Origin: Candidatus Yanofskybacteria bacterium
GTDB lineage: Bacteria > Patescibacteriota > Minisyncoccia > 2-02-FULL-40-12 > GWA2-44-9
Assembly: GCA_020847715.1 (NCBI GenBank)
Contig: JADLBM010000012.1
Location: 1-56,534 of the forward strand
Length of the DNA stretch: 56,534 nucleotides
Direction of reading: 5' to 3'
Every line of letters begins with the position of its first letter. The first letter of the stretch is position 1. The notes under the pieces were generated by a model. That model did no database searches, was not told the origin of the DNA, and worked only from the letters and a program-made list of their open reading frames with translations. The translations under genes and the position numbers were made by a program. This document shows, piece after piece, positions 118 to 30,102 of this stretch.

Positions 118-170
118 TTGCTTCGCGTTTCTCAGCGTGATATACATGAAGCACTAACCACCTACGTCGT

Positions 171-497
171 ATGGAAAAAATGCATGAAGAGATCTCCGGA
201 GCGGTAGAAGTTGGCGCAACGCAGCACGAATTGAGCGCCATCGAGAAGCTTCCTGAGAACACCGTTGAGGAGATGCGCAAAAAATGGTCAGCGTACAACG
301 ATTTTGCCAATAAGGTCGGCGCCCGAATCCCCATGATTCATTCTGAATCAGGCGGAAATGAGCCATTCGATAATGCTCAGGAGTTCACTGCGGACGATGA
401 AACCCAGAACCTTCTCATCTCTATGAAAGAGCGGGCCGGAAGTGAAATGGCGCGCTTGAACGACGAGATCCAGAAGCTCATGCAACTAGCCGCATAG
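171..497 (+). CDS. Hypothetical small acidic protein (108 aa)
   Basis: ATG ORF just upstream of comM. I recognise no motif and see no clear SD. Confidence 0.45.
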   Translation: MEKMHEEISGAVEVGATQHELSAIEKLPENTVEEMRKKWSAYNDFANKVGARIPMIHSESGGNEPFDNAQEFTADDETQNLLISMKERAGSEMARLNDEIQKLMQLAA

Positions 498-530: not shown

Positions 531-2051
531 GTGGCACACCAACTCCTCTCGGCAGCCCTCGGGGGCATCGATGCCCAAACCGTGCGCGTCCAGATAGACT
601 CCAACCCAGGCATTCACGCCTTTTCTATCGTCGGCCTCGGCGACAAGGCGGTGCAGGAATCCATTGACCGTATCGAAGCCGCTATCAAAAATAGCGGCTT
701 CGCTGCACCTCGGAGCAAGAACAAGCGTTTTGTCGTAAATCTGGCTCCCGCAGATGTAAAAAAGGAAGGGCCCGGCTACGACCTCCCTATCGCCATCGCA
801 TACCTCGTTGAAACGCGCCAATTGGTCATTACAGGCGAGGAAGCCATGCTCATTGGGGAATTAGGCCTCGACGGTCGTCTCGCTCATACAAACGGCATTC
901 TCGCGGCAACTATGCTTGCGCGAGACATGGGAATTCGGCAGGTCATCGTCCCCTCCTGCAATGCCGCCGAGGCGTCCGTGGTGACAGAGGTAGGTGTCAT
1001 CGGTGCTGACACCTTGTCACAGGTGGTGTCACACTTATGTCACCAGGTGCCAATACAGGTGACACGTGGTGACACCACGATGGCACCGGTGCCAAACGAC
1101 GACTCCTTTGTGCACATTAAGGGTCAACAGGCGGCAAAACGAGCCCTCATCGTCGCCGCCGCAGGAGCCCACAATGTTCTCATGAGCGGCTCTCCCGGCT
1201 CAGGAAAGACACTCCTCGCCCGCTCCATTGTTGGCCTTCTGCCTCCCCTTACGAATGAGGAGGCTATCGAAGTTGCGAAAATCCAGAGTGCGAGCGGGCT
1301 TCTCCACGGTTCTGTCAGCTCTCTCCAGCGTCCGTTTCTAGCACCTCATCACACCGCATCCCCCGCATCAATCGTTGGAGGTGGGACAACCATTCGCCCC
1401 GGACAGGTGAGCCTCGCTCACCGTGGCGTGCTATTCCTTGACGAACTTCCTGAGTTCGCGCGAAATGTACTCGAGGCCCTCCGTCAGCCCATCGAGGACG
1501 GTATCGTCTCGATATCTCGCGCATCAGGCTCGATTACCCTCCCCGCAAAGTTCATGCTCGTCGGCGCAATGAACCCGTGCCCCTGCGGAAACAGCGGGGA
1601 TCCGGCGGCAATCTGTACATGCACCGCAACATCCACGCTCAAATATGGGAAACGTATCTCGGGGCCCCTCCTCGACCGCATGGACATCCGCGTACTGGTT
1701 TCGCGAGAACATGTTTCAGCCGAAACGGCCGAGAACACACTTAACATCACCGATATTAGGCGCTCCATCCAGCACGCTCGCTCCGTCCAACGGGAGCGCC
1801 TGTCCCCCATTGGGCTCGTTACGAACAGCGAGATTCGGCACACCCACATCGATTCTCTCTGCGCGCTCTCACCAAGCGCGGAACAGCTTCTGCAGGCGGC
1901 AGTGAATCGAAACAACCTCTCGCTGAGGGCGTATCATAAAATAAAAAAGATCGCGCGAACCATTGCGGATCTTGATGACTCCTCAGCCGTACAGCAGCAC
2001 CATGTCGCCGAGGCGATGGCACTTCGTATGGCAGACCGAGCTACTTCTTAA
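531..2051 (+). CDS. comM: YifB/ComM family Mg-chelatase-like AAA+ ATPase
   Basis: GTG start. Walker A GSPGSGKTLLA, Walker B GVLFLDELPEF, Lon-like N-domain, C-terminal MgChl-like tail. Length is typical (506 aa). Confidence 0.9.
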   Translation: MAHQLLSAALGGIDAQTVRVQIDSNPGIHAFSIVGLGDKAVQESIDRIEAAIKNSGFAAPRSKNKRFVVNLAPADVKKEGPGYDLPIAIAYLVETRQLVITGEEAMLIGELGLDGRLAHTNGILAATMLARDMGIRQVIVPSCNAAEASVVTEVGVIGADTLSQVVSHLCHQVPIQVTRGDTTMAPVPNDDSFVHIKGQQAAKRALIVAAAGAHNVLMSGSPGSGKTLLARSIVGLLPPLTNEEAIEVAKIQSASGLLHGSVSSLQRPFLAPHHTASPASIVGGGTTIRPGQVSLAHRGVLFLDELPEFARNVLEALRQPIEDGIVSISRASGSITLPAKFMLVGAMNPCPCGNSGDPAAICTCTATSTLKYGKRISGPLLDRMDIRVLVSREHVSAETAENTLNITDIRRSIQHARSVQRERLSPIGLVTNSEIRHTHIDSLCALSPSAEQLLQAAVNRNNLSLRAYHKIKKIARTIADLDDSSAVQQHHVAEAMALRMADRATS

Positions 2052-3135
2052 CCAGCGGATTCTGTGCCCCGTGAACCTCGAAGTGCAGGTGGCACCCTGT
2101 GGAGCGGCCCGTCGTCCCCATGAGAGCGATCTTGTCGCCCTTTCCGACTACCTGCCCCGCCTCAACCAACAGCTTAGACGCATGCGCGTAGAGCGTTTCA
2201 GTGCCATTATCATGGGATATCTTGATGTATTTCCCAAAGCCGCCGTTGTATCCGGTCGCGTCAGAGACGGTCACTTTCCCGTCAGCGGCGGCATAGATAG
2301 GAGTTCCGCATGAATTCGCCATATCAACGCCATTTCTTCCATGAATCCGGCCCCAGTTAAACCCATACGTTGGCAGCTTAAAGAAGTCGCCAAGATCGGG
2401 AAGGTGGGCGAATTGCTTTGCCGCCTTTGCGAGACTCGCAACCGATGCCGTGCCCAGAAGCGGAACCTTTGTGGCGCCGGTAGATGTGCCTTGCAAGCGA
2501 CCATCTGGAATGATGATCTCGTCCCCAGCCTCAAGCTCCCCGTTACTTGGGAGGCGGTTGTATGCAACGATACGGCCTTCATCCGCGGCGTACTTCTTCG
2601 CGAGCACGGCAACCGTTTCTCCTGATTTCACGCGATGAATAACGCCCGTCACTGGGGGAATACGGAGCACCTGACCAGGGGAGATGCTGTCTGCATCCTT
2701 GAGGCTATTCGCCCAAATAATGGAATTCATGCTTACGCCAAAGTCAGACGCGATGAATGAAAGGAGGTCGCCCTGCTGGACGGTATATTCGATAACACCC
2801 GTCCGGCGACCCGAGATGCGGGAAAGATAGTCGGTGTCGGGAGGGGTAATAGCGACCACGGCGCTCTCGCGGATCGTCGATGCGCCAGAACTCGGAGCAG
2901 GGGAGGAGACGGCCGCGTCCCCGCCAATTCCAGCAAAAATGCTATTAATATCGGCCATCTGAGACGAGGAGAGACTGCGTGAAGAATCAAAAGCGACCGC
3001 TTTTTCTTCTATATACTGGCGGACCCAGTTATCAAGCAGGGAGGCCTGCCCCTCGTTGCTTGAGCCGTAGAAGACCAGAGCCGTAACAGCGACAAAAACT
3101 ACGGCATAGAGCTCCGTATAGCGGCTTCGAGTCAC
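2041..3135 (-). CDS. Membrane-anchored LysM-repeat / M23 family metallopeptidase
   Basis: N-terminal TM, two LysM-like repeats (YTVQQGDLLSFIA..., HRVKSGETVAVLAKKY...), and an M23 core with HxxxD-like HGRNGVDMA and the ending GCHLHFEVH. Confidence 0.9.
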   Translation of the reverse strand: MTRSRYTELYAVVFVAVTALVFYGSSNEGQASLLDNWVRQYIEEKAVAFDSSRSLSSSQMADINSIFAGIGGDAAVSSPAPSSGASTIRESAVVAITPPDTDYLSRISGRRTGVIEYTVQQGDLLSFIASDFGVSMNSIIWANSLKDADSISPGQVLRIPPVTGVIHRVKSGETVAVLAKKYAADEGRIVAYNRLPSNGELEAGDEIIIPDGRLQGTSTGATKVPLLGTASVASLAKAAKQFAHLPDLGDFFKLPTYGFNWGRIHGRNGVDMANSCGTPIYAAADGKVTVSDATGYNGGFGKYIKISHDNGTETLYAHASKLLVEAGQVVGKGDKIALMGTTGRSTGCHLHFEVHGAQNPLVKK

Positions 3136-3399
3136 TCGTCCTATGATCGCTCCGATCCGACTTTCGGCGAAAAGCCTGCGGACCTTCGAGCTAGTTCTGG
3201 AGAGGATTGTACTAATAGGCAGACTTGGCGCAAACGGTTAAACATCAACGAAACCGAGCGTTTTCGCCAAAGAAAGCAAAAATTCTCTTGCGAGAATTAC
3301 AGGCGAAGATTAGCATGTTGTGGTCTTTGGGTCAACGCTTGCCCGTACTATTGTCCACAAGGCATATTACACGTTCTATTTAGTCTATATGTCAAGTTT

Positions 3400-3759
3400 A
3401 TGAGTACCGCCGATACAATATTCGGCCTTTCCGGCGAAGAGGCCGCCTGCCACTGGCTTGTTGGGTCCGGATTTCGCATTCTCGACCGAAATTGGCGGCG
3501 TCCATGGGGAGAGCTCGATATCGTCGCGAGCAAGGACGGTACCATCCACTTCGTCGAGGTAAAGACTGCCCGTCGCCTCGTAACAGGGTTCGAGCCCTTC
3601 CTCCGCGCCAACGGACGGAAAATGCATAAAGTCATGCGAACGGCGCAAACATGGCTTTCCGCGCATCAGTATTCGCCCGACACTCCATGGCAGTTGGACA
3701 TCATCTCCGTTATTATGGAAGGGAAGGCACCTGCGATAGAGTTTTTCGAGAACATCTAA
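3400..3759 (+). CDS. yraN: YraN family (UPF0102) endonuclease-like protein
   Basis: 119 aa. The motif GF.ILDRNWR...GELDIVA....HFVEVKT is typical of UPF0102. Confidence 0.85.
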   Translation: MSTADTIFGLSGEEAACHWLVGSGFRILDRNWRRPWGELDIVASKDGTIHFVEVKTARRLVTGFEPFLRANGRKMHKVMRTAQTWLSAHQYSPDTPWQLDIISVIMEGKAPAIEFFENI

Positions 3760-3762
3760 GCA

Positions 3763-4611
3763 ATGAACAAAATCGGCGCACATGTCAGTATAGCCGGAGG
3801 CATCTTTCATGCCCCCACCCGCGCTCGCGATGGAGGGTGTGAGACATTCCAGTGCTTCAGTCGCTCCCCACAGGGAGGCCCAGCGCCAGCGCTCACCGAT
3901 GAGGTTGTCTCTCAGTTCAAGCGAAACATGGAGGAATCCTCCATCGACCGATTCGTCATTCATGCACCGTACTACATCAATCTCGCCTCACCGAACGCCC
4001 CCGTCCGCCACGCGAGTCGCCGCATCATTCGAGAGGAGCTAGAGCGGGGGAGTACGCTTGGAGCAAGCTTTGTTATGTTTCACCCCGGTTCGCACACCGG
4101 CCGACCACTGGAGGAGGGGGTAGCCGCAGTCCAGAAGGGACTTGAGGAAATATTACGGGGATATACCGGATCCTGCGAACTCCTCGTGGAAATATCAGCG
4201 GGAGCGGGCCAAGTGCTCGGAGATACCTTCCAAGAGAACGCCGACATGATACGCCCCGTTCTTGACGCCACTGGCTTTGGCGGCGTCTGCTTCGACACCT
4301 GTCACGCGTTCGCTTCAGGGTATGATTTCCGGACTACCACGGGGGTCGCCGCAGTACTTCGTGAATTCGATGCGACAATCGGTCTCAAGCATCTCCGCCT
4401 CACCCATGTGAATGACAGCAAGACCGATCTTGGGGGTCACAAGGACCGCCACGAGCACATCGGCAAGGGATTCATTGACACCGAAGGCATTGCCAGCATT
4501 CTGCAAACCCCTGCGTTCGCCCGCATCGATTGGATACTCGAAACGGAAAGCGAAGGACAAGACAAAGACATCGCGGCGCTTCGCGCTATCAGAGAAAACA
4601 CCTCGAAATAA
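3763..4611 (+). CDS. nfo: Deoxyribonuclease IV (endonuclease IV)
   Basis: Motifs HAPYYINLAS, FHPGSH, CFDTCH, HVNDSK and DRHEHIG. 282 aa. Confidence 0.9.
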   Translation: MNKIGAHVSIAGGIFHAPTRARDGGCETFQCFSRSPQGGPAPALTDEVVSQFKRNMEESSIDRFVIHAPYYINLASPNAPVRHASRRIIREELERGSTLGASFVMFHPGSHTGRPLEEGVAAVQKGLEEILRGYTGSCELLVEISAGAGQVLGDTFQENADMIRPVLDATGFGGVCFDTCHAFASGYDFRTTTGVAAVLREFDATIGLKHLRLTHVNDSKTDLGGHKDRHEHIGKGFIDTEGIASILQTPAFARIDWILETESEGQDKDIAALRAIRENTSK

Positions 4612-6158: not shown

Positions 6159-6605
6159 ATGCACCTCGTCTCACAGAGCCCCACCGACACGCAGGCTATC
6201 GCCGCAAAACTCGCCCAGCGCCTCCACGGCGCACTCCCACGAGCGACGGCAACCGTCGTCGCACTCTATGGGGATCTCGGAGCAGGAAAAACGACATTCA
6301 CCCAGGGATTCGCGAAGGCGCTTGGCATCACCCAACAACCAAAGAGCCCAACCTTCCTACTCGCGAAAGAGTACGCGATACCCCAGACACCGTACTCGCT
6401 CTGGCACCTCGATTGCTACCGGCTTCAGGGACATCGCGACCTCGTCACGCTGGACCTTCACCGCATATTCGAAAACCCGAACAATATTGTGCTCGTAGAG
6501 TGGCCTGAACATATAGGAGAGGGACTCCCACGGGACACCATTGAAGTACGCTTCACCCACGAAGGGCCGACCTCGCGCGGCATCACCATCAACGAGAACC
6601 CGTGA
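6159..6605 (+). CDS. tsaE: tRNA t6A37 modification protein TsaE (YjeE ATPase)
   Basis: P-loop GDLGAGKTTF, later WHLDCYRL. 148 aa from the internal ATG at 6159. Overlaps the polA GTG by 4 nt. Confidence 0.85.
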   Translation: MHLVSQSPTDTQAIAAKLAQRLHGALPRATATVVALYGDLGAGKTTFTQGFAKALGITQQPKSPTFLLAKEYAIPQTPYSLWHLDCYRLQGHRDLVTLDLHRIFENPNNIVLVEWPEHIGEGLPRDTIEVRFTHEGPTSRGITINENP

Positions 6606-9241
6606 AGAAGCTCGTCCTCATCGACTCAAATGCGCTCGTTCATCGGGCGTTCCACGCGTTGCCTCCGCTGTCATCACCCGCGGGACAGCCGACGAACGCA
6701 ATTTATGGATTTACCTCCGTTCTTTTGAAGATGATCGCGGACCTGAAACCGGATGCCATTGTCGCGACGTTCGACCTCGCCGGCCCAACATTCCGCCACG
6801 AGGAGTATGAACAGTACAAGGCTCACCGCGTAAAAGCGCCGGATGAGCTCTATGAGCAAATACCTGGGGTGAAGCGCATGCTCGGTGCATTCGGCATTCC
6901 TATCCTCGAGCAGGCGGGGCTGGAAGCCGACGACATCATCGGCACCGTCAGCGCGCAGACCCAACAGATTCCCGGACTTCAGACCATCATCGTCACCGGA
7001 GATCTCGACACACTTCAGTTGGTCCACGGACAAAAAGTCGTCGTATTCACCCTACGAAAGGGGATGAGCGACACGGTCACCTATGACGAGGACGGTGTCC
7101 GTGAGCGCTACGGTATCGCTCCGACACAGGTCCCCGACCTGAAGGGACTGAAGGGCGACCCGAGCGATAACATCCCCGGCGTCAAAGGAATCGGGGAGAA
7201 AACAGCGATGAGCCTCATCCAGGCATTCGGGTCCATCGAGCAGCTCTACACCGAACTGGAAAAGCCAGAATTCACACCGGGGAAACAAGCCGGCGTGTCC
7301 GCAAGCGTCCGTGCAAAGCTCCTCGAACAGAAGGATATGGCGCTGTTCAGTAAGAAGCTTGCAACCATCGTGCGCGATGCATCCATCTCCTACGATAGCG
7401 AGGCCGCCGATTGGCGCCAGCACCTCGACATCCCCGCGATTGAGGCGCTCTGCAGAGAATTCGGTTTCACCTCTCTCATGAAGCGTATCGGCACAACACT
7501 CGGTTCGGCCGTCAAAGAAGCCTCTGCGCAGCAGCTCGACTTCGATAGCCCCGTGGAGAAAAATGATGGAGCGCCTGTGCTTGTGGCCACAAGCCCGCAT
7601 GAGCTTCCTCAGGGTTCTGCCGCCGCGCTGCACGGAATCTTCTCGGAAGGCATACTGCAAAGCCTTTTGGTAACGGCCGATGGCCCGACCGTGTATGAAA
7701 TCCGAAACCCGTCGCCGAGCACTATCGCCGATGTCGTTGCGCGTTACCCAACTCTCATCGGACACGACCTGAAGCCGATCCTGAAGGCAACCCCTGACGC
7801 TGCTACCGCTGCTCGCGCAACTCTCGTAGACACCCAAATCGCCGCGTGGCTCGCGAACCCCGAACAGCGTGACTACAGCCTGAGCCGAGTGGCATACGAG
7901 GTCCTCGGTCAACCGATGAGCGACAATGAGCGCTCATCGGTCTCCGTCATCTGGAAACTTCGAGAACCGCTGGAGGAGCGCCTCAGGACGCTCGACCTCC
8001 TTCCCGTCTTTAGAGATATTGAATCGCCGCTTATCGCCATCCTCGCGCGGATGGAGCAGGTCGGCATTTTGGTGGACACGTCACATATCGATGACCTCAT
8101 GGCGAGCGCAAGCACAGAGGTCGCGAAGCTCGAAGAGCAGATCTACCATCACGCCGGAACGACATTCAACATTAACTCGCCCTCGCAACTCGGCGACATC
8201 CTCTTCACGACCCTCGGCATCAAGGGGAAGGTACGCCGAACCGGCGGGGGAGCGCCGTCTACCGCAGCCGCGGAATTGGAAAAACTCCGCGACGAACACC
8301 CCATCATTGACCTCATTCTGCAGTACCGCGAGCTCAACAAGCTTAAAACAACCTACATCGAGCCATTCCCGACGCTCGTTGGAGCCGACGGACGCCTCCA
8401 CACCACCTACCATCAAACGGGAACGGCAACCGGACGCCTCTCGTCGTCCGATCCGAACCTGCAAAATATCCCGACAAGAACCGAGCTTGGCTCCCGATTC
8501 CGCGCCGCCTTCATCGCACCCCCGCACACCAGCCTGCTATCGCTCGATTACTCCCAGCTTGAGCTCCGCCTTATTGCACACATCGCTCAGGACCAGACAA
8601 TGCTCGAAGCGTTCCGAAACAGAGAAGACATCCACACTCGCACCGCCTCAGAAGTATTCGGTCTAGCACCCGCGCAGGTCACCAAGGATATGCGCCGCCA
8701 AGCGAAGGTGCTGAACTTCGGCATCATCTACGGCATGGGCTCCGTCGGATTCGCGCGCGCGGCTGGTATTTCGCGTGACGCGGCAAAGCAATTCATCGAT
8801 GAGTACTTTGCCCGCTTCTCCGGTGTCGCCCGCTACATTGAACGCACGAAAGAGGAGGCGTTCACGCGTGGATTCGTCACAACGCTCCTCGGTCGTCGTC
8901 GGCCGCTTCCGGACATCTCGAGCCGAATCCCACAACTCGCCGCCCAGGCCGAGCGCATGGCAGTCAATCACCCCATCCAAGGAACAGGAGCAGACCTTGT
9001 GAAGCTGGCAATGATCGCGGTCGCGCAGCATCTTTCCGAACTTCCAGAAAGTCATCGCCCGCGACTCCTCCTCCAAGTCCACGACGAACTGGTATTCGAA
9101 GCACCCTCCGATACAGTCGTCGACGCCGCCCATGAGCTCGCTCACATCATGGAAAAGGTCTACGCGCTTGATGTCCCGCTTGTGGTCGACGCAAAAGCAG
9201 GACTGAATTGGGCGGCAATGGAGCCTATCGAACACCAGTAG
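6602..9241 (+). CDS. polA: DNA polymerase I
   Basis: 5'-nuclease domain (LIDSNALVHRAF, GDPSDNIPGV) and pol motifs DYSQLELRL, RRQAKVLNFGIIYG, QVHDELVFE. 879 aa, GTG start. Confidence 0.95.
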   Translation: MKKLVLIDSNALVHRAFHALPPLSSPAGQPTNAIYGFTSVLLKMIADLKPDAIVATFDLAGPTFRHEEYEQYKAHRVKAPDELYEQIPGVKRMLGAFGIPILEQAGLEADDIIGTVSAQTQQIPGLQTIIVTGDLDTLQLVHGQKVVVFTLRKGMSDTVTYDEDGVRERYGIAPTQVPDLKGLKGDPSDNIPGVKGIGEKTAMSLIQAFGSIEQLYTELEKPEFTPGKQAGVSASVRAKLLEQKDMALFSKKLATIVRDASISYDSEAADWRQHLDIPAIEALCREFGFTSLMKRIGTTLGSAVKEASAQQLDFDSPVEKNDGAPVLVATSPHELPQGSAAALHGIFSEGILQSLLVTADGPTVYEIRNPSPSTIADVVARYPTLIGHDLKPILKATPDAATAARATLVDTQIAAWLANPEQRDYSLSRVAYEVLGQPMSDNERSSVSVIWKLREPLEERLRTLDLLPVFRDIESPLIAILARMEQVGILVDTSHIDDLMASASTEVAKLEEQIYHHAGTTFNINSPSQLGDILFTTLGIKGKVRRTGGGAPSTAAAELEKLRDEHPIIDLILQYRELNKLKTTYIEPFPTLVGADGRLHTTYHQTGTATGRLSSSDPNLQNIPTRTELGSRFRAAFIAPPHTSLLSLDYSQLELRLIAHIAQDQTMLEAFRNREDIHTRTASEVFGLAPAQVTKDMRRQAKVLNFGIIYGMGSVGFARAAGISRDAAKQFIDEYFARFSGVARYIERTKEEAFTRGFVTTLLGRRRPLPDISSRIPQLAAQAERMAVNHPIQGTGADLVKLAMIAVAQHLSELPESHRPRLLLQVHDELVFEAPSDTVVDAAHELAHIMEKVYALDVPLVVDAKAGLNWAAMEPIEHQ

Positions 9242-20873: not shown

Positions 20874-22571
20874 CTACGCGCGGAAGTCGAGTGGGCCCTG
20901 GTCCTCACTCGCTTTTGTCGCCTCGCGGCGACGATACAGCGGTGAGCGCGTGTATGCCGTGTAGAGCAGGGTGAGCGTCGCTGCAAACATAAGCGCCGCA
21001 ATAACCGCATCTCCGGGCCCTGTCTGCACGCCTCCCGCGCCGCCAACGACGCCTCCACCCGTGCCAGCTCCTCCCTGAGTTGAACCGTACACCGTGACGC
21101 TCGTATCGCCGATAACATCCGCCAGCTGTTGGGCGGTCGCCACGGCGCGCGGTCGGAACATCTGCGGCCCACTGGGAAGCAGGGAAGTCTGATCTGCAAG
21201 AGCAGACCATCGCACCGTGACGACATCTCCGGCCTCAAGGCGACCTAAGAATAGGCCCGAAGTGGTAATGGTATCGATGAGAACCGGCTGACCCTCGACG
21301 GTCGTCGAGCCCTGTCGGTATGACATGCCAGATGGGATCTCATCGCGAACCAGAAGGCCGCTCGTGGGTCCACCTCCACTGTTCGTGATTCGAATGACAA
21401 ATTCCACGATCTGCCCCGGATTCACAGTGACTGCGGTCCGCTCGCTCGGATCTCCCACCGAAAGATTCCGCGCATACTTCGCCACCGTAAGCGCGGCGCT
21501 ACCCGTTTGCGTCGTGTCGTCCGTCACTGTCACTGAGCATCGAGCACTCTGCGCTCCACTGCTGACTCGAACGTTTTTGACGCCGGTAGTCGCATATGTA
21601 ATCGACACGAATTCATTCCCACCTTCTTCAAGGAGTCCACCGCCCGTGATATCCCATTGGTATACGCCCGTACCGCCACTTGCCTGTAGAAGCGCTCTTC
21701 CGGAACGCTGCACAGTCTGCGTTGTAGGCGAACAAACGAGCGGAGGCGGGGGAGGGGTCGGAGCAGTTGAGATAGTTGTGCCGATAGGAGTCGTTGACGC
21801 GCCGCCGCACAACACAGTGTTCGAAACAATGCTAGGACTAAACTTCACGCGATACTGGTAGGTTCGTCCGGCCGCAGCCGAGACATCGGTGTACGTCCCA
21901 ATACCAAAGGTATTCCAGCATCCGCCCTCACTGAAAACATCGGTCCAGCTCCCTCCGTTGATATCCATGCGCTGAATAACGTTTTGCATCGCGCGACCCG
22001 ACAACGGGTTCGTCCAAGTCAGAACATTGACGGAACCACACTGGACCGCCAGCGCGGGCGTTGACGGAGTTCCCGCATATGCGGGGCATGAATCGCCGCC
22101 TCCACCCGCGCCGCCGCCATCACACCCAGACCCACCGGCACGCGGATCGCATACTCGGATACAGAAATCGTCTCCGAATGCTGTCCAGTTCTTCGGACAA
22201 TCTTGCGGCTTCTCAACGCACATCTTCGGATACCGCTCCCACACAACACCGCTGTCAGGCTCGGGCCTGCGGTCTGTCATGTACAGGAACTCTCCCGTAC
22301 CCGTTGTCCCCCTATATGTCGGTAGGCACCCTTCATCGAGCGCATAGTCGTACTCCGGCTCTCGATTGCACACGAAATCCGGCACCCAGCTTGGCGGCTG
22401 GCTTGCGCGTCCGGGACATCGCTCTTCAGCAGCGAAGAACCTCCCGATCTCCAACTGAAAACTTCCGTAGACACCCCATATCACAAGCACCATCGCCAGG
22501 ACGGCAGCAGTAACCACAATCCACGCCTGTGGACTTTCACGGAAGAGCCGGCGAATGACTTCCCAATCCAT
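20874..22571 (-). CDS. Surface protein B: N-terminal anchor motif, Cys-rich and FN3-like regions, Cys-bounded module, DUF11 repeat, VQTGPGD sorting signal
   Basis: GSFQLEIGRFFAAE, PPPPP linker, CSPTTQTV...ARCSVTV module. C-terminus VQTGPGD + TM + YTRS..YRRRE...LDFRA. Confidence 0.8.
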   Translation of the reverse strand: MDWEVIRRLFRESPQAWIVVTAAVLAMVLVIWGVYGSFQLEIGRFFAAEERCPGRASQPPSWVPDFVCNREPEYDYALDEGCLPTYRGTTGTGEFLYMTDRRPEPDSGVVWERYPKMCVEKPQDCPKNWTAFGDDFCIRVCDPRAGGSGCDGGGAGGGGDSCPAYAGTPSTPALAVQCGSVNVLTWTNPLSGRAMQNVIQRMDINGGSWTDVFSEGGCWNTFGIGTYTDVSAAAGRTYQYRVKFSPSIVSNTVLCGGASTTPIGTTISTAPTPPPPPLVCSPTTQTVQRSGRALLQASGGTGVYQWDITGGGLLEEGGNEFVSITYATTGVKNVRVSSGAQSARCSVTVTDDTTQTGSAALTVAKYARNLSVGDPSERTAVTVNPGQIVEFVIRITNSGGGPTSGLLVRDEIPSGMSYRQGSTTVEGQPVLIDTITTSGLFLGRLEAGDVVTVRWSALADQTSLLPSGPQMFRPRAVATAQQLADVIGDTSVTVYGSTQGGAGTGGGVVGGAGGVQTGPGDAVIAALMFAATLTLLYTAYTRSPLYRRREATKASEDQGPLDFRA

Positions 22572-22620
22572 AGCAATAGTATATCAGCTTCCGCGCCCAC
22601 AGAGCACGGAGCCCTGTGTG

Positions 22621-23277
22621 TTACATCTGCACTTGCACCGCCTGGACGGCAATGCGCTTGTAATTTGTACCGACCGGATAGCAACTGATAAGCACAAGGC
22701 TACTGCCCAAAGCGTTCTCCATTTCGCTCAGACGGCTATCCTCTGAGAAAGGATTAAAAATGATTGCCTGCTTCATCTCATATACAAATGAACGATTATC
22801 CTCATACTGCACATAGAATCGATCTCCGGGTTTCAGGCGACTCAAGAGCGCGAACACCGCTCCATACTCTCCCTTATACCAAGGGTACGCTGAGCTGTGC
22901 CCAAGAATGACCGCCGCGCCGGGGTTTCCGGGTTTCGCGGTATCACTGTAGTGCACGACGCCATCTTCCAGACGCTTGTAGATGGCGTCGTTGTTGTTTG
23001 GCGCATTGAAAACGATAGGCGCGCGAACACCGATGCTGTCGATGACCAGCGTTGCCCGATCGGGTAGCGGTTTTGCCTGCACGGCACCCGCGAGCGGGAG
23101 GAGGCGAATGGCATCTCCAAGCGTGTCTCGAGTTCGGATTGTTCCGGGAGCTACAAGATACTGTGCGCTCTTTGCGACAAAACGAATATTCAGCAGCAGG
23201 AACGCCGCAGTGAATGTTACGGCGAAGATAAACACGAGCCGGAGCCAGATGGTTCGGTTCCGATTGTGAAGTCGCAT
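22621..23277 (-). CDS. Sortase family transpeptidase (218 aa)
   Basis: Start at ATG 23277 (MRLHNRN...) with an N-terminal TM. Catalytic His in AAVILGHSS, Cys in LVLISCYP, downstream Arg (NYKRIAV). Embedded among its presumed substrates. Confidence 0.85.
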   Translation of the reverse strand: MRLHNRNRTIWLRLVFIFAVTFTAAFLLLNIRFVAKSAQYLVAPGTIRTRDTLGDAIRLLPLAGAVQAKPLPDRATLVIDSIGVRAPIVFNAPNNNDAIYKRLEDGVVHYSDTAKPGNPGAAVILGHSSAYPWYKGEYGAVFALLSRLKPGDRFYVQYEDNRSFVYEMKQAIIFNPFSEDSRLSEMENALGSSLVLISCYPVGTNYKRIAVQAVQVQM

Positions 23278-23342
23278 GTCACCAGTATACCAAACAACAA
23301 CATCCCCGGTATGGGGATGTTGTTGTTTTCGGACACTCAGAC

Positions 23343-25049
23343 CTACTTGAGGAAGTTGAGTCCGGCAGACCGCGAGAGTCGTCCGACCTCCGCGAGTGCC
23401 GCGCGGCGACCGAAGGCCAGTGAGCGCGTGTACACGGCGTAGCCACCCGTCACCAATGCGGCGATGAGCAAGGCAAGCCACAGAGAGTCCGCGGGACCCG
23501 TCTGGACGCCTGATGCGTTCGTAATGCTCACATGCTGTCCGAGAGTAATCGGAAGCTGAGCAGACATCGTGCCAACCGTATCTGCTCGGACCTGCGCAGT
23601 CGCGTTGACTACCACCTGGCCCCACGAGGGGACGGATGCTTCGTCGACGCGAACCGACAGCTTAATTACCGTATCAGTAGAAGGCGAGAGCGTACCGACA
23701 GAGATACCAGCGCTCGTGATGCCGTCCGAAACCGCATACCCATTCAGTGTTGTCGAGCCTGCAATGTAGTTCACGCCGCTCGGGAGAAGCTCCGTCACGA
23801 ACGCGTTGTACAATGACGAGCCATTCATTGAGCGAACACGAAGGATGAGGTCGAGCGTGTCTCCGCCACGGGCGCGAACGCTTGCGTTCTCACCACTCTG
23901 CCCGCGCGAGACGTTGCGTCCGGTCTGGCGCAGATCGAGTCGTGCATTCGGATCGGTGTACGGGTACGCCGTCGGCGTCGGGGTCCACGCGCTACCATTC
24001 AGGACGAGCGTGGTAGTTCGAGCCTGCATATTCGCGTTCTCTGCAGTCACGGTCACTGAGTTGTAGAGCGACTGCCAGTTCGTGTATGCGGCATCAACAG
24101 TCGCATCGAACTTCACGATATAAGTGCGGTTCGCGGTCAGCGTACCGAGGCTCAGACCGCCGTTTGTGATGCCGTCGGTGTACCACGTTCCGTCGATATT
24201 CGTAGTTCCAGACAGGTAGCGAACGAACGAGGGGAGTGCGTCCGTGATGCGAACGTTGGTGAGCTGATAGGCACCGGTCGTGATGCGCGCAATGAACTGC
24301 ACGCGATCGCTCCCGTAGACATTCACCGAAGAACCCTCTCCTCCGCGCGTAACATTCCGGACGGTGTGGTCAACCGCAAGTGAGCCATACGGATACGCGG
24401 TCGGCGTCGGAGTCCAGTAGGTGGAGCCGTACACATTCACCGCGCACGAAGCCGACTGACCGGCGCTCGTGACCGTGACCGTACGATTCACCGTTGTGGA
24501 GCCATAGTTGTAGAAACGAGTCGAGAAGACGGAACCCCAACCGGACGACGGGTTGCCGTCAGTCGTGGTCCAGTAGTAGGAACCGTTACCACCCCATGCA
24601 TTCAGAGAGACCACATCACCCGAGGTGACACTCGAGTACGACGGTGCGCACTGCAGGGTCGTCCATGGGGTCGGCGTCGGGGTCCAGGTGTACGTCGGCG
24701 TAGCGCCATACACATACACCGTGCACGCGGCGGTCTGGTAACCGTCAGAAACGGTTACCGTGCGCGTCTCCGAACCGGTCACATAGAACCGGGTACCAAA
24801 TGTCGCACCATACCCATAACTCGGATTTCCACCAACCGCAGACCATGTCAGCTGGTTCGTAGTGTTCGAGGAATAGGCAGTAAAGCTCACGAAATCTCCG
24901 CTCGAAACGGACTGAACGGACGGCGCACACTGCAGGGAACCGTACCACTGCGTGGACTGCGCCTGGGCATCAACGACACCAAAGGCGCCACCGACCGAGG
25001 ACGCCAGAAGGGCCGTGAAAAGCCCGAAAATCAAGGCTTTCTTGGACAT
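23343..25049 (-). CDS. Surface protein A: classical signal peptide, two Cys-bounded modules, two DUF11-like repeats, VQTGPAD sorting signal
   Basis: Signal peptide MSKKALIFGLFTALLASSVGGAFGVVDAQA. Two LQCAPS...C.V.VYG modules. C-terminus VQTGPAD + TM + YTRS..FGRR...LNFLK. Confidence 0.8.
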   Translation of the reverse strand: MSKKALIFGLFTALLASSVGGAFGVVDAQAQSTQWYGSLQCAPSVQSVSSGDFVSFTAYSSNTTNQLTWSAVGGNPSYGYGATFGTRFYVTGSETRTVTVSDGYQTAACTVYVYGATPTYTWTPTPTPWTTLQCAPSYSSVTSGDVVSLNAWGGNGSYYWTTTDGNPSSGWGSVFSTRFYNYGSTTVNRTVTVTSAGQSASCAVNVYGSTYWTPTPTAYPYGSLAVDHTVRNVTRGGEGSSVNVYGSDRVQFIARITTGAYQLTNVRITDALPSFVRYLSGTTNIDGTWYTDGITNGGLSLGTLTANRTYIVKFDATVDAAYTNWQSLYNSVTVTAENANMQARTTTLVLNGSAWTPTPTAYPYTDPNARLDLRQTGRNVSRGQSGENASVRARGGDTLDLILRVRSMNGSSLYNAFVTELLPSGVNYIAGSTTLNGYAVSDGITSAGISVGTLSPSTDTVIKLSVRVDEASVPSWGQVVVNATAQVRADTVGTMSAQLPITLGQHVSITNASGVQTGPADSLWLALLIAALVTGGYAVYTRSLAFGRRAALAEVGRLSRSAGLNFLK

Positions 25050-25333: not shown

Positions 25334-25405
25334 GCTCTCGTCGTTCAATGGATAGGACGCAAGCTTGCGGAGCTTGTAATGTAGGTTCGATTCCTACCGA
25401 GAGCA
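25334..25405 (+). tRNA. tRNA-Arg (anticodon GCG by manual fold), no encoded CCA
   Basis: Cloverleaf: acceptor GCTCTCG/CGAGAGC, D stem GTTC/GGAC, anticodon stem CAAGC/GCTTG with loop TTGCGGA, T arm GTAGG-TTCGATT-CCTAC. Confidence 0.8.
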
Positions 25406-25443
25406 CAAAAACAAATGGCCCCCTTGCGGGGCCTTTTGTTTTT
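25406..25443 (+). terminator. Rho-independent (bidirectional-looking) terminator
   Basis: GGCCCC/GGGGCC stem extended by an AAAAACAAA/TTTGTTTTT A/T-rich tract. Confidence 0.7.
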
Positions 25444-25452: not shown

Positions 25453-25614
25453 GGTAGGAATCGAACGGGGAGAAGCGGAGCGAGGCCCGGCCAAGTATGG
25501 GCGGGCCGATGTGAGCGCCAGTCGCATATCCGGTGGATATGCGACTGCTCCCCAGTACAACGAAGGCTCACCGCGACGGCGGGGAGCTGAGGCGAAATTC
25601 CTACCGAGAGTGCA
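25453..25614 (+). ncRNA. tRNA-Arg-linked satellite element (structured, about 162 nt)
   Basis: It starts with GGTAGGAATCGAAC, the reverse complement of tRNA 25385-25398. Near its 3' end, 25597-25610 (ATTCCTACCGAGAG) is a direct copy of tRNA 25390-25403. The ends pair (9 bp). Inside is a perfect 11-bp hairpin at 25520-25546. Transcription is unproven. Confidence 0.5.
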
Positions 25615-26243: not shown

Positions 26244-26495
26244 CTACCGATGAGGGCAGCCGGCCCAGCAGCACGGTCGCCGCATGCCTTTGCGCATCTT
26301 ATCGAGACCGACTGCAATGCGCCGCTCACGTGTTTTCGATTGCTTCGCGGAAGTCACCCAGCAGATCCATTCGTTGCGAGCCAGCGGAGTGATATCTGCC
26401 CACACGCTCCGAGCTTTCGAATCCGATTCGATCGCTGCGCGGAGGTCCGGCGGCGCCCTATGTACTGCGCCGTTTTTTGTATTCGTCTTTTTCAT
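26244..26495 (-). CDS. YdeI/OmpD-associated family protein (83 aa)
   Basis: Start at ATG 26495 (MKKTNTK...). The pattern PPDLRAAI....VWADITPLARNEWICWVTSAKQSKTRERRI is typical of the YdeI-type domain. Confidence 0.65.
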   Translation of the reverse strand: MKKTNTKNGAVHRAPPDLRAAIESDSKARSVWADITPLARNEWICWVTSAKQSKTRERRIAVGLDKMRKGMRRPCCWAGCPHR

Positions 26496-26511: not shown

Positions 26512-26635
26512 TGGCGGTGGGAGTAGGATTCACCCGCCACTCTCGGCGCGTCCGTCGGCGCGCCTCGGTTCTGGGCTCCAGCCCTCGCGGTCGCCCCTTC
26601 TGGCGCGACAGCGCTCCGGGCTTCGAATCCTACGC
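26512..26635 (-). ncRNA. tRNA-Ser(UGA)-linked satellite element (about 124 nt)
   Basis: Its 5' end GTAGGATTCGAA is an inverted copy of the T-arm. Its 3' end is a 20-nt direct copy of the tRNA 3' end including CCA (26512-26531 equals 26685-26704). It shares a 33-nt core with 27002-27035. Confidence 0.55.
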
Positions 26636-26647
26636 TCCAGCTATAGT

Positions 26648-26683
26648 ATCACCCCAGACTGCCACATGGCAGTCTGGGGTGAT
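26648..26683 (-). terminator. 17-bp perfect inverted repeat immediately 3' of tRNA-Ser(UGA)
   Basis: ATCACCCCAGACTGCCA-CA-TGGCAGTCTGGGGTGAT. No clear U-tract, so it may be a processing or termination hairpin. Confidence 0.4.
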
Positions 26684-26684
26684 A

Positions 26685-26774
26685 TGGCGGTGGGAGTAGG
26701 ATTCGAACCTACGGTACGGTTTCCCGTACAGCGGTTTTCAAGACCGCCGCTTTAGACCACTCAGCCATCCCACC
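26685..26774 (-). tRNA. tRNA-Ser (anticodon UGA), type II with long variable arm, CCA encoded
   Basis: Acceptor GGTGGGA/TCCCACC, anticodon stem GCGGT/ACCGC with loop CTTGAAA, T arm GTAGG-TTCGAAT-CCTAC, ends GCCA. Confidence 0.85.
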
Positions 26775-26797
26775 CAATGCGCCAGTGTATCGTGAAA

Positions 26798-26826
26798 TTG
26801 CCAATAACTCAAGAAAATGCTATATT
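26798..26826 (+). promoter_or_regulatory. Sigma70-like promoter for tRNA-Ser(CGA)
   Basis: TTGCCA (26798-26803), 17-nt spacer ending TGc, TATATT (26821-26826). A divergent TTGAGT-17-TACACT can be read on the other strand for tRNA-Ser(UGA). Confidence 0.5.
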
Positions 26827-26843
26827 ATTCCCGCTCCACTCCC

Positions 26844-26930
26844 GGAAGCGTGGCTGAGTGGTTGAAGGCACCACACTCGAAATGTGGCATAGGGGTAACC
26901 CTATCGGAGGTTCGAATCCTCCCGCTTCCG
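26844..26930 (+). tRNA. tRNA-Ser (anticodon CGA), type II, CCA not encoded (ends GCAA)
   Basis: Acceptor GGAAGCG/CGCTTCC, anticodon stem CCACA/TGTGG with loop CTCGAAA, long variable arm, T arm GGAGG-TTCGAAT-CCTCC. Confidence 0.85.
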
Positions 26931-26934
26931 CAAT

Positions 26935-26970
26935 ACCAAAACGGATTGCCGTGTGGTAACCCGTTTTGGT
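26935..26970 (+). terminator. 10-bp hairpin 3' of tRNA-Ser(CGA)
   Basis: ACCAAAACGG / CCGTTTTGGT with a 16-nt loop. The U-tract lies inside the stem only. Confidence 0.4.
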
Positions 26971-26984
26971 GCCGTCGTCGAAAA

Positions 26985-27104
26985 GGGAGGATTCGAAGGA
27001 CGGAGCGATGTCGCGCCAGAAGGGGCGACCGCGAGTCCGTGGTCAGCCCGAGGGTTGTCGACGGACAACCCAAGAGGCGAGACCGAATCCTCCCGCTTCC
27101 GCCA
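26985..27104 (+). ncRNA. tRNA-Ser(CGA)-linked satellite element (120 nt)
   Basis: GGGAGGATTCGAA (26985-26997) is the reverse complement of tRNA 26911-26923. 27084-27102 is a 19-nt direct copy of tRNA 26913-26931, and the element continues 2 nt further to end GCCA (27104). There is an 11-bp closing stem plus two internal hairpins. Confidence 0.55.
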
Positions 27105-27125: not shown

Positions 27126-27317
27126 GTGACAACGCTACTGCTGGACGACTTGGACGACGACACGCGCCGGCGACTCACCGAGCGCAAGCGGTACTCGTGT
27201 GCACACTGCCAGTACCGGTGGGAGATTCCCGCGCTCCAGAGCTCGACCGAGTGCCCGTCATGCGGCGGCCACTGGATCGTCTTCGACACCGCGCCGGATA
27301 GCCAGCGGGACCCGTGA
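27126..27317 (+). CDS. Small zinc-ribbon protein (63 aa, GTG start)
   Basis: AGAGAGGA SD then GTG. Acidic N-terminus, then CAHC...(16 aa)...CPSC. The stop codon sits in the terminator loop. Confidence 0.5.
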   Translation: MTTLLLDDLDDDTRRRLTERKRYSCAHCQYRWEIPALQSSTECPSCGGHWIVFDTAPDSQRDP

Positions 27318-27332
27318 GGGTCCCGTTTTCTT
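27307..27332 (+). terminator. Rho-independent terminator shared by convergent genes
   Basis: GGGACCC-GTGA-GGGTCCC followed by GTTTTCTT. Confidence 0.7.
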
Positions 27333-28388: not shown

Positions 28389-29825
28389 ATGCTGGAAATC
28401 CATCCGAAGGTAGGGGAGGTCCTACGGACACTCGAGGAGAACGGCCACCGCGCATATGCGGTGGGTGGCTGCGTGCGCGACATCATGATGGAGCGACATC
28501 CAACCGATTGGGATGTCACCACCGACGCTCGCCCCGAGCGCATCCAAGAGCTGTTCCCCGATAACTTTTACGACAACGCATTTGGAACTGTCACCGTGAA
28601 GACGCGCGACGACGACCCCATCGTGCGCACCATTCAGATTACCCCGTTCCGCATCGAAGGACGGTACACCGACCAGCGGCACCCCGACGAGGTCACATTC
28701 GCGAAAACAATCGAAGAAGACCTCTCGCGCCGTGACTTCACCGTGAACGCAATGGCGATGAGTGCTGACGGGACACTGGTTGACCCCTACGGCGGACGAG
28801 ACGACCTCTCCGCAAAAATAATCCGCGCGGTCGGGGATGCCGATACTCGCATCACGGAAGATGCGCTCCGCATGATGCGCGCGGTTCGATTCGCGACCAC
28901 GCTCGATTTCAGCATTCACGACGACACTCTGCGGGCGCTCACGCGCCACGCCGCACTGCTCGAGCGCATCTCGGCAGAGCGCATTCGCGATGAACTCACA
29001 AAGATCCTGAATGCTCCGCGCGCAATGCATGGCATCCAACTCCTCGAAGATACCGGCCTCCTCCGGTTCATCCTTCCGGAGTTGCGCGAGGGCGTAGGAG
29101 TCGAGCAGAACCTCCACCACATCTACACGGTGTGGGAGCATAATTTGCGCACCATGCACTACGCTGCGCAGAAGGGATATTCATTCCCCGTGCGAATGGC
29201 GTGCCTCCTCCATGATGTGGGGAAGCCGCGCACCAAGCGGGGAGAGGGCCGCCACTGCACGTTCTACGCACACGATGCCGTGGGTGCCACGATGGCTCGA
29301 AAGATCATGGAGCGCCTCAAATACCCCGGCGAGACCGTCGATGCGGTCGTGCGCTTGGTTCGTTACCATATGTTCTACTACAGTGTTGGCGAAGTCACCG
29401 AGTCCTCGGTTCGCCGCCTCATCGCGAACGTCGGGCTCGAACACATTGACGACCTCCTCAGGCTCCGCGAGGGAGATCGCATCGGCTCCGGAACGCCCAA
29501 GGCGGTACCCTATAAACTCCGCCACCTCAAGTACATGATCGACAAGGTCAGCCATGACCCCATTTCAGTAAAGATGCTCAAGGTGAACGGGCAGGATATT
29601 ATGGAAGTCCTCGGAATTCCGCCCGGGCCGAAGATTGGCCTCATCCTCAACACGCTCCTCGCCGAGGCACTCGACGATCCGACCATCAACACCCGCGAGC
29701 TCCTCTTAAAGCGAGCGGGAGAGCTTGATGCGGCATCCGCTGCCGACCTCAAAAGCGCGCTTGAACGCATCGAACAGGCTCGGGATTCGGAAGAGAAGGA
29801 GCGGATGAAGAAATACTACGTGTAA
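28389..29825 (+). CDS. cca: CCA-adding enzyme (tRNA nucleotidyltransferase with HD domain)
   Basis: The GGCVRD motif (AVGGCVRDIMM), RRDFTVNAMA, and HD region LLHDVGKP. 478 aa. Confidence 0.9.
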   Translation: MLEIHPKVGEVLRTLEENGHRAYAVGGCVRDIMMERHPTDWDVTTDARPERIQELFPDNFYDNAFGTVTVKTRDDDPIVRTIQITPFRIEGRYTDQRHPDEVTFAKTIEEDLSRRDFTVNAMAMSADGTLVDPYGGRDDLSAKIIRAVGDADTRITEDALRMMRAVRFATTLDFSIHDDTLRALTRHAALLERISAERIRDELTKILNAPRAMHGIQLLEDTGLLRFILPELREGVGVEQNLHHIYTVWEHNLRTMHYAAQKGYSFPVRMACLLHDVGKPRTKRGEGRHCTFYAHDAVGATMARKIMERLKYPGETVDAVVRLVRYHMFYYSVGEVTESSVRRLIANVGLEHIDDLLRLREGDRIGSGTPKAVPYKLRHLKYMIDKVSHDPISVKMLKVNGQDIMEVLGIPPGPKIGLILNTLLAEALDDPTINTRELLLKRAGELDAASAADLKSALERIEQARDSEEKERMKKYYV

Positions 29826-29854
29826 CCAAAAGACCTCTCGGAGGGGTCTTTTGG
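29826..29854 (+). terminator. Rho-independent terminator of cca
   Basis: CCAAAAGACC-TCTCGGAG-GGGTCTTTTGG starts directly after the stop. Confidence 0.7.
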
Positions 29855-29859
29855 TATCT

Positions 29860-29979
29860 GTCGGGCTGCTGGGAATCCCGTACGCGTCAAACCTCGCCGT
29901 CGCTCGGTTCGCGCTTCCGGCCGGGGCTCGCGGCGCCTCCTACTGTCGACGTATCGCTCCGCCCTTCGCTTCCCGGCAG
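29860..29979 (-). ncRNA. tRNA-Pro-linked satellite element (120 nt, more degenerate)
   Basis: 18-nt direct copy of the tRNA-Pro 3' part (29860-29877 equals 30031-30048). Degenerate inverted T-arm CTGCCGGGAAGCGAA. Shares the core ...CGAAG-GGGC-GGAGCGAT...CGCGAG-CCC with the Ser elements. Confidence 0.45.
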
Positions 29980-29993
29980 GCAATCTGCGCGCA

Positions 29994-30024
29994 ACAAAAA
30001 GACCCCACTGCGGGGTCTTTTTGT
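29994..30024 (-). terminator. Rho-independent terminator after tRNA-Pro
   Basis: AAAAAGACCCC-GCAG-GGGGTCTTTTT on the minus strand. Confidence 0.7.
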
Positions 30025-30031
30025 TTATGGG

Positions 30032-30102
30032 TCGGGCTGCTGGGAATCGAACCCAGTCTTTATGAACCCGAATCATACGTACTACCGGTATACTACAGCC
30101 CG
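30032..30102 (-). tRNA. tRNA-Pro (anticodon CGG), no CCA
   Basis: C1:G72 acceptor CGGGCTG/CAGCCCG with A73, anticodon stem TATGA/TCATA with loop TTCGGGT, T arm CTGGG-TTCGATT-CCCAG. Confidence 0.8.

Follow-up and report, generated by a model that had tools for sequence, protein, structure and literature searches.

The tRNA-Ser locus and the element copies of the window

The 56,534-nucleotide contig JADLBM010000012.1 of a Candidatus Yanofskybacteria bacterium (assembly GCA_020847715.1), hereafter the window, carries two divergent tRNA-Ser genes, each followed in its own direction by a hairpin (hp1) and then by an element of about 120 nucleotides (nt) whose ends copy the neighbouring tRNA. This element is the subject of the present analysis. 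The layout had been described in an earlier reading of the DNA (the original prediction) and was confirmed by ARAGORN, Rfam and a repeat finder. Two further copies lie elsewhere in the window. The tRNA-Ser units and all four element copies are listed here, with scores from R1, a covariance model built from 36 copies.

26685-26774, minus strand: tRNA-Ser(UGA) (ARAGORN; Rfam tRNA, 64.2 bits), whose 3' 20 nt recur at 26512-26531
26647-26684, minus strand: hp1 of the Ser(UGA) unit, an inverted repeat with an 18-bp perfect stem and apex UGCCAUGUGGCA, without a U tract; not called as a terminator
26512-26635, minus strand: element 3' of tRNA-Ser(UGA) (R1, 76.1 bits, E 5e-18; fold; repeats)
26844-26931, plus strand: tRNA-Ser(CGA) (ARAGORN; Rfam tRNA, 58 bits), whose 3' 19 nt (26913-26931) recur at 27084-27102
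26935-26970, plus strand: hp1 of the Ser(CGA) unit, with 16-nt arms, 88% complementary, and apex UGCCGUGUGGUA, without a U tract; not called as a terminator
26985-27104, plus strand: element 3' of tRNA-Ser(CGA) (R1, 111.4 bits, E 1.6e-27; fold)
29859-29985, minus strand: third copy, 3' of tRNA-Pro(CGG) (30030-30102) (R1, 71.8 bits)
~25453-25614, plus strand: fourth copy, diverged and enlarged, 3' of tRNA-Arg(GCG) (25334-25406) (R1, a weak match of 15.8 bits, E 0.009-0.08)

According to the repeat finder, both Ser elements end in a direct copy of the tRNA 3' end: 26512-26531 equals 26685-26704 on the Ser(UGA) side (20 nt, 100% identity, 173 nt apart), and 26913-26931 equals 27084-27102 on the Ser(CGA) side (19 nt, 100% identity, 171 nt apart). 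At their 5' ends, the same program found inverted copies, which correspond to the T loop and the T-stem 3' strand of the neighbouring tRNA-Ser (26622-26633 against 26696-26707, 12 nt, 100% complementary; 26980-26997 against 26911-26928, 18 nt, 89% complementary). The interiors have 48 nt at 94% identity in common (26584-26631 and 26988-27035), and a 26-nt core occurs exactly twice in the window and is absent from shuffled sequence (0 expected, 100 shuffles). The original prediction had claimed all three features, namely the 19-20-nt direct copy, the inverted copy and the homologous interior, and was right in each.

It had also counted four copies in the window. The core pattern was found only twice, but R1 added the Pro and Arg copies, both outside the locus that the prediction had described. 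The Pro copy has an 18-nt direct repeat, GATTCCCAGCAGCCCGAC (29860-29877 equals 30031-30048, 100% identity), and is flanked by two terminator hairpins (~29993-30026 and ~29825-29855). The Arg copy is separated from its tRNA by the Arg(GCG) terminator at 25417-25433 and has a perfect 13-nt inverted T-arm copy, GGTAGGAATCGAA, at 25453-25465 and a 14-nt repeat, ATTCCTACCGAGAG, at 25597-25610. An orthologous Arg(GCG) copy is present in L003 at ~1700-1880, with two compensatory double substitutions, in two hairpins (L-numbers denote metagenomic loci or contigs of relatives). Altogether, four of the seven tRNA genes of the window carry an element copy, always 3' and on the same strand. The mirror-image pair is thus nothing special in itself, being two of these four copies, head to head, with a promoter region between them that they share. 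The elements were not recognised as tRNA, tmRNA or tRNA-like by ARAGORN or Rfam clan CL00001, which called just the seven tRNA genes in the window.

Fold, covariation and tailoring to the adjacent tRNA

The complete unit of about 170 nt consists of hp1, a short linker and an RNA of about 125 nt with a three-way-junction fold. In the closing helix (P1), the 5' inverted copy of the T loop and T-stem 3' strand pairs with the 3' direct copy of the same tRNA, which leaves the acceptor 3' strand and discriminator as a free tail, a feature of the whole family. P2 carries the near-invariant motif CGGAGCGAUG...CCGCGAG, and the long P3 hairpin has tandem G·A pairs and the apex CGACGG. In the Ser(UGA) element, P1 is formed by 26624-26633 with 26523-26531, the P2 core spans 26584-26609 and the free tail is UCCCACCGCCA (26512-26522); the Ser(CGA) element has P1 at 26985-26994 with 27085-27094, P1b/P2 at 26998-27038, P3 at 27041-27084 and the free tail GCUUCCGCCA (27095-27104). 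The paired ends, three-way junction and free acceptor-like tail proposed earlier were recovered in the predicted minimum free energy (MFE) folds of both the Ser(CGA) element (-69.3 kcal/mol, z -5.3) and the Ser(UGA) element (-61.3 kcal/mol, z -2.5). At the base of P3 the two differ in sub-type, the UGA copy having an extra GGCUGGAGCC hairpin there, as do copies in L014, L026 and L086. Given that 48 nt of their 5' halves are nevertheless 94% identical, gene conversion between the two inverted Ser neighbours is suggested.

We tested the fold (P1, P1b, P2a/P2b and P3) against column shuffles and against partners slid by 1-3 columns. In a MAFFT alignment of 36 copies (A3), 81% of cells were paired compared with 64% after shuffling, and none of 500 shuffles reached the observed value; 34 of 42 pairs change on both sides, while the slid controls paired at 35-43%. 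A larger alignment of 104 distinct copies (A4), which is model-aligned and thus leans towards the model, gave 85% paired against 61% shuffled, with 41 of 42 pairs changing on both sides. Strong covariation in both sets of sequences supports the earlier contention that these elements are homologous and under selection for secondary structure, and are not decaying debris.

Furthermore, the non-Watson-Crick cells carry information on the strand. G·U cells outnumber A·C cells overall (147 versus 89, p 2e-4), most clearly in P2 (30:6) and P3b (39:11), and the commonest non-standard cell is G·A/A·G (320 cells), with tandem G·A in place of Watson-Crick pairs at fixed P3 sites and also in P1 of a sub-variant. 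The excess of G·U over A·C, together with the frequent G·A, favours a conserved fold that works as RNA of the tRNA-sense strand. A small open reading frame (ORF) beginning at the conserved AUG of CGGAGCGAUG was considered and rejected: two copies have CUG, and many copies with a CAGUAG loop have an in-frame TAG at codon 5.

The ends of the copies follow the particular tRNA next to which they lie. An exact stretch of at least 12 nt shared with the tRNA was found in 43 of 74 tRNA-adjacent core-pattern matches, two of the 43 not being copies of the tRNA 3' end. In all but a few of these 43 scored copies, the direct repeat starts at T-loop nucleotide 56/57, and its other edge varies in position, from a few nt before the end of the tRNA up to more than 40 nt past it. 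Inverted copies were compared with their own neighbours and with permuted partners. At T-loop positions 56-60, 143 of 165 cells were paired (permuted 123.7±3.0, z 6.4), and against the T-stem 3' strand the value was 139 of 165 (permuted 109.8±4.0, z 7.3); no permutation out of 5000 reached the observed pairing. The match to the adjacent T-arm, which the original prediction had put forward for tabulation, is thereby established against permuted partners. In a full minihelix the 5' flank would pair with the acceptor 3' strand as well, but such pairing was no better than chance (z 1.6).

The ...GCCA ending common to the two Ser elements had been taken for a shared feature. It did not hold up, as related copies end in GCAG, CACA and so on, following the gene sequence, and the encoded CCA at element ends is incidental and not a feature of the family. 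Retro-copying from a mature tRNA with CCA was rejected as an origin because the repeats follow the gene sequence, usually without CCA, and often run 2-40 nt past the tRNA end.

Occurrence in relatives and filled and empty sites

A T-loop-independent core pattern matched at least 120 metagenomic loci, and R1 found 133 copies at E<1e-3 in 108 metagenomic loci. A same-strand tRNA stands no more than 120 nt upstream of 88 of these, a further 14 are found in arrays behind one, and 14 are at contig edges. The tRNAs served cover 17 amino-acid specificities and 34 anticodons, in hosts whose G+C ranges from 0.34 to 0.69. The hosts are Yanofskybacteria, Kaiserbacteria and AT-rich Paceibacterota, the latter two as placed by marker proteins of two other host contigs. 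A second form has its core about 48 nt behind tRNAs in Kaiserbacteria-like contigs, has no direct repeat, and carries as its 5' flank an inverted copy of the last 4-9 nt ahead of the terminator hairpin. The following second-form copies stand behind protein-gene terminators, with neither tRNA nor direct repeat; in these, the 5' flank repeats the final ~9 nt of the coding sequence in inverted orientation.

L039, 684-810
L044, 1463-1589
L109, 262-388
L101, 963-1088
L125, 1310-1435

A strict core-pattern scan of genome contigs gave two matches, both due to chance, inside coding sequence and with no tRNA nearby; a scan of viral contigs gave one chance match that is not a family member. The Rfam 15 search of the window and nine other element loci returned no family at threshold for the elements, and at permissive E values yielded just tRNA, tRNA-antisense artefacts (Plastid-psbI, ycf2), weak miRNA and sX4 noise and a sub-threshold RtT. 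A prior description of the family in Candidate Phyla Radiation (CPR) or Patescibacteria was not found in the literature searched.

In L096, two tandem elements (16-262, plus strand) lie upstream of a 23S rRNA gene (756-4062, plus strand), which extends the family to an rRNA operon; this 23S gene has a weak group I intron match at 3521-3674. A group I intron (6418-6645, minus strand; Rfam, 81 bits) is also found in a tRNA-rich stretch of L087, a locus that carries elements behind tRNA-Lys and tRNA-Arg, 257 nt apart.

Comparison of syntenic contigs from close relatives showed the same tRNA sites with and without the element. L005, L007 and L008 have both tRNA-Ser genes in tandem, 4-6 nt apart, without an element, and in L004 a hairpin and element are inserted between the tandem tRNA-Ser genes. 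L003 has the divergent tRNA-Ser arrangement of the window, with an element behind Ser(CGA) only, of the two Ser genes, and a further copy behind tRNA-Ala(GGC), whose ends match that tRNA (T loop TTCGACT, 25-nt repeat). At the Ser(CGA) sites, the flank past the distal copy in L004 (...CCGCAGG) and L003 (...CCGCAG) is the empty-site flank of L005 (...CCGCAGG), and the proximal copy of the filled sites runs directly into hp1. At Ala(GGC), where the site of the window is empty, its native terminator is similar to the hairpin that L003 has past the distal copy; at Pro(CGG), the distal hairpin of the window (~29825-29855) and the GGTTACACGTAGTA that follows it match the empty-site terminators in L009 and L007. 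Since distal flanks and terminators match those of empty sites, a block of hp1, linker, inverted copy and core sits between two copies of the target, of which the distal one is the original. The hp1 apex UGCC-N-U-N-UGGCA is kept while the stem covaries at the Ser(CGA), Ser(UGA) and Ala(CGC) copies of this lineage, where hp1 travels with the element and is part of the conserved unit. Whole units also form tandem arrays in L098 (period 177), L068 (period 137), L054 and L096.

Insertion polymorphism and target duplication are thus the part of the spread that can be seen directly. A new copy would arise as an inserted block (hp1, linker, inverted copy and core) flanked by a target duplication from the T loop to the insertion point, and unequal exchange between the duplicated copies would make or remove tandem units. 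Duplications range from 19 to at least 59 nt in length. One edge fixed at a universal microhomology and a variable other edge are the pattern expected from copy-choice template switching or target-primed reverse transcription, either of which may be the mode of spread; no enzyme is implicated, and neither model accounts for the matched inverted copy without later selection.

Rearrangements of the tRNA genes themselves were seen as well. The tRNA-Pro(CGG) beside the cca gene is on the minus strand in the window, L004, L007 and L009 and on the plus strand in L003, L005, L006 and L008. Across this flip just the 72-nt tRNA is conserved (97%), and no inverted repeats were found at the edges of the flipped segment. 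The orientation of tRNA-Ser(CGA) in the window and L003 is opposite to that in the other relatives. An HNH endonuclease gene (L003 4545-5040, minus strand) separates the divergent tRNA-Ser genes of L003, the closest relative; the window has no such gene in its 70-nt spacer. In the region 2493-4347 of L003, AHSA1-like and short-chain dehydrogenase genes stand between OmdA and tRNA-Ser(UGA); in the window, the Ser(UGA) element lies directly beside OmdA and occupies the position of these two extra genes.

Transcription, likeness to known systems and competing explanations

The neighbourhood of the Ser units contains the following further features, of which the two protein genes next to the elements are context and lie outside them.

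26798-26826, plus strand: promoter-like site (TTGCCA, 17 nt, TG-TATATT; 10/12 matches), a consensus match only, 17 nt upstream of tRNA-Ser(CGA)
26244-26495, minus strand: OmdA/YdeI-family gene (Pfam PF13376, E 8e-19), starting 16 nt past the Ser(UGA) element
27126-27317, plus strand: gene for a 63-aa zinc-ribbon protein, starting 21 nt past the Ser(CGA) element
27304-27327, plus strand: terminator-like site, after the zinc-ribbon gene
28389-29825: CCA-adding enzyme gene, with 90% identity to a Candidatus Yanofskybacteria homologue

The zinc-ribbon gene is also found 3' of the element in L003. Further away, at 20874-25049 (minus strand), is a gene cluster for large surface proteins that are rich in Thr/Ser and carry a membrane anchor at the C terminus, plus a sortase-like ORF. 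Its layout is the same in relatives (CLIPPER and Sortase Pfam matches in L004 and L005) and seems ordinary for Parcubacteria.

The consensus scan found no other promoter-like site between 26798-26826 and the zinc-ribbon gene, and the first terminator-like site on the Ser(CGA) side is that after this gene. The intrinsic-terminator test did not call the hairpins behind either tRNA-Ser gene, neither of which has a T run; T runs are present in the hairpins flanking the Arg copy (called) and the Pro copy (read from the sequence). Given the sole promoter-like site upstream, an hp1 without a U tract and a terminator-like site only after the gene, tRNA-Ser(CGA), hp1, the element and the zinc-ribbon gene probably form one transcript. 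The element would then be transcribed from the tRNA promoter by read-through of hp1 and could be excised by the steps of tRNA 3'-end maturation, whose enzymes would meet the tRNA's own 3' sequence presented after a helix. The long hp1 may serve as a processing site, and the conserved P2/P3 core is probably the working part, a putative binding site for a protein or another RNA.

The original prediction could not place the element in any RNA family. No Rfam family was indeed matched at threshold, but the layout itself can be placed. The tRNA-linked repeats (TLRs) of E. coli have been known since 1978. They comprise 22 copies at ten loci, each sharing 18-19 identical bp at its 3' end with the tRNA or 5S rRNA upstream, and are without known function except for RrA/B/F, which bind Hfq and CsrA (PMC8144298). 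RrA, RrB and RrF sit behind 5S rRNA and are made by read-through between two terminators, T1 and T2 in the case of RrB (PMC8144298). Both the TLRs and the present elements immediately follow a stable-RNA gene in its own orientation, with their last 18-20 nt identical to the gene 3' end (here 20, 19 and 18 nt for Ser(UGA), Ser(CGA) and Pro, at 100%), and both occur in tandem arrays and behind several different tRNAs. In RtT, as judged from the Rfam consensus and the E. coli sequence, a 5' inverted copy of the 3' half of the T-arm also closes the element and leaves the acceptor strand free; in the consensus (RF00391), GGGAAGGAUGAGAA pairs with AAUCCUUCCC, followed by a free CCACCACCA (...CCACCA tail), which is the same design. 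The E. coli tyrT-tyrV unit has the same order of parts with a period of 178 nt, compared with 171-173 nt in the window, and the Pro copy of the window, like RrB, lies between two terminators. E. coli TLRs and the Parcubacteria family also have in common the variant GAUGAGAA, whose tandem G·A pairs are made with T-loop G57 A58.

There are differences as well. The host here belongs to the CPR and not to Enterobacteria; the Parcubacteria family has its own near-invariant core (CGGAGCGAUG...CCGCGAG...CGACGG), includes copies without a tRNA repeat behind protein genes, and has no conserved in-frame peptide like tpr. RF00391 gave a full-length match to the window at 26512-26649 (minus strand) of 14.2 bits (E 1.8-9.6), below its threshold of 45 bits, and no RtT match at E<=1 in nine other element loci; R1 scored E. 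coli rtT units at 12-13 bits (E ~0.5). TLRs outside enterobacteria were not found in the literature searched. By analogy of layout, then, the elements can be regarded as the same kind as E. coli TLRs, though not as the same sequence family.

Likeness to other systems is more partial. mascRNA (MALAT1 3' end) and the minihelix substrates of RNase P, RNase Z and the CCA-adding enzyme also have a T-arm-derived helix followed by the acceptor 3' strand and discriminator, so the element could in principle borrow the tRNA end-maturation machinery as such tRNA-like processing modules do; unlike them, it has neither a cloverleaf nor a paired acceptor stem. tRNA-targeting insertions (T-loop-type integrase att sites, retroelements and short interspersed nuclear elements) similarly show a duplication edge fixed in the T loop that reaches or passes the gene 3' end, and a regenerated tRNA gene, but the Parcubacteria element lacks an associated recombinase or reverse transcriptase, and its block is about 150 nt of structured non-coding sequence with an inverted copy matched to the target.

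Taken together, the two Ser elements, and the four copies of the window, are members of a large tRNA-tailored family of Paceibacterota (Parcubacteria, CPR), built like the TLRs and RtT of E. coli, and we consider it reasonably probable that these are co-transcribed trailer RNAs. Several findings weigh against this view. The expectation that copies always lie 3' of a tRNA holds for the 88 copies close behind one and the 14 in arrays but fails for 17 of the 133, which have no same-strand tRNA within 700 nt, some of them standing behind protein-gene terminators without a direct repeat. The existence of copies without the tRNA direct repeat means that the core can do without a tRNA 3' copy. Read-through would be needed at several copies, such as those of tRNA-Pro and tRNA-Arg in the window, where the preceding hairpin has a good U tract. 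The G·U excess, being measured in a model-fitted alignment, is partly favoured by the model itself. Finally, core homology to E. coli RtT is undetectable, and the resemblance may be convergent.

An alternative that deserves attention, albeit unlikely on balance, is that the elements are non-autonomous mobile DNA (MITE-, REP- or PATE-like), with hairpins read as single-stranded DNA by a transposase encoded elsewhere and a fold that serves transposition rather than an RNA function. Presence and absence differ among close relatives, the target is duplicated, genomes hold several copies and tandem arrays, and some copies lie behind protein-gene terminators; moreover, a gene for an IS200-like Y1 transposase (RAYT-like; Pfam Y1_Tnp, E 7e-9) lies between grpE and dnaK at L044 2234-2938 (plus strand), ~650 nt from a second-form copy. 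However, a tblastn search with this protein found no other copy in the window or 131 loci, the copies have no common terminal inverted repeats and are instead tailored to each tRNA, and a duplication of 19 to at least 59 nt is unlike the product of a fixed staggered cut. The predominance of G·U over A·C on the tRNA-sense strand, with G·A as the commonest mismatch, is an RNA-like signature, and a 125-nt three-way junction differs from the simple palindrome of REP/REPIN. Mobile DNA and a trailer RNA are also compatible, because a mobile element can be a functional RNA as well.

A more speculative version, to which we would give a similarly low weight, sees a mobile structured RNA/DNA module that homes to tRNA genes. 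Its 3' end would join the T loop at 55/56, either by copy-choice on the T-loop microhomology common to all tRNAs or by target-primed reverse transcription, and the E. coli TLRs would be the other face of one ancient or convergent system of tRNA-tailored RNAs that target tRNA genes. Such joining would duplicate the 3' part of the tRNA, so the tRNA gene would stay intact; and because the free tail is identical to the acceptor 3' strand of the host tRNA, each copy would be an isoacceptor-specific partner RNA, with a tail able to base-pair to the 5' acceptor strand in its own pre-tRNA or in tRNA fragments.

It is improbable that the element is a cis-regulatory leader (attenuator, riboswitch or switch sequestering the Shine-Dalgarno sequence) of the downstream OmdA or zinc-ribbon gene. 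Both Ser elements do end 16-21 nt before a same-strand start codon with no promoter-like site between, and CCUCC in the Ser(CGA) T-stem copy looks, as read from the sequence, like an anti-Shine-Dalgarno. Elsewhere, however, the element precedes a terminator, another tRNA (L004, L087), 23S rRNA (L096) or unrelated genes, with no recurring downstream gene family, and no Rfam cis-regulatory family was matched.

The possibility that the true tRNA is made up of the gene's 5' portion and the distal copy of its 3' end, with an intron-like T-loop insertion between them that is removed or tolerated, was raised by the MFE folds of the whole co-transcripts (-133.4 and -144.6 kcal/mol, z ~-7.6). In these, the 5' acceptor and T-stem 5' strands of the tRNA pair with the distal copy and the proximal 3' half pairs with the inverted copy. 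We think this very improbable. Every proximal gene forms a complete cloverleaf according to ARAGORN and Rfam. The two foldings have, by construction, almost the same energy, and folding during transcription works in favour of the proximal tRNA; in addition, some copies lack the direct repeat, and splicing at T-loop positions is not known in bacteria. The swapped fold is presumably a consequence of the repeats and not the working form. Least credible of all are attL/attR scars, left where an integrase had inserted genomic islands into tRNA genes and the islands then decayed: T-loop-type integrases leave 19-25-nt direct repeats from the T loop to the tRNA 3' end, and repeats of that kind are present at element copies, but just ~150 non-coding nt lie between them, the same covarying core is conserved under structural selection at 34 anticodon types, and no integrase was found among the called genes of the syntenic loci examined, the whole window not having been scanned for integrases.

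The family, undescribed in Rfam 15 and in the literature searched, is the Parcubacteria counterpart of tRNA-linked repeats. It provides a second, independent family with the TLR layout, this time in the very small genomes of Parcubacteria, and offers more than 100 diverse copies that covary strongly, as well as sites that occur in nature both filled and empty. This indicates that the layout is selected and not an accident of E. coli history. The copies form a comparative data set for the structure, its essential nucleotides and the rules of insertion, and the model offers annotation for ~125 nt that recur behind many Parcubacteria tRNA genes and are presently unannotated. Should the elements be mobile, or act in a tRNA-specific manner, they would represent a new kind of tRNA-gene-associated RNA.

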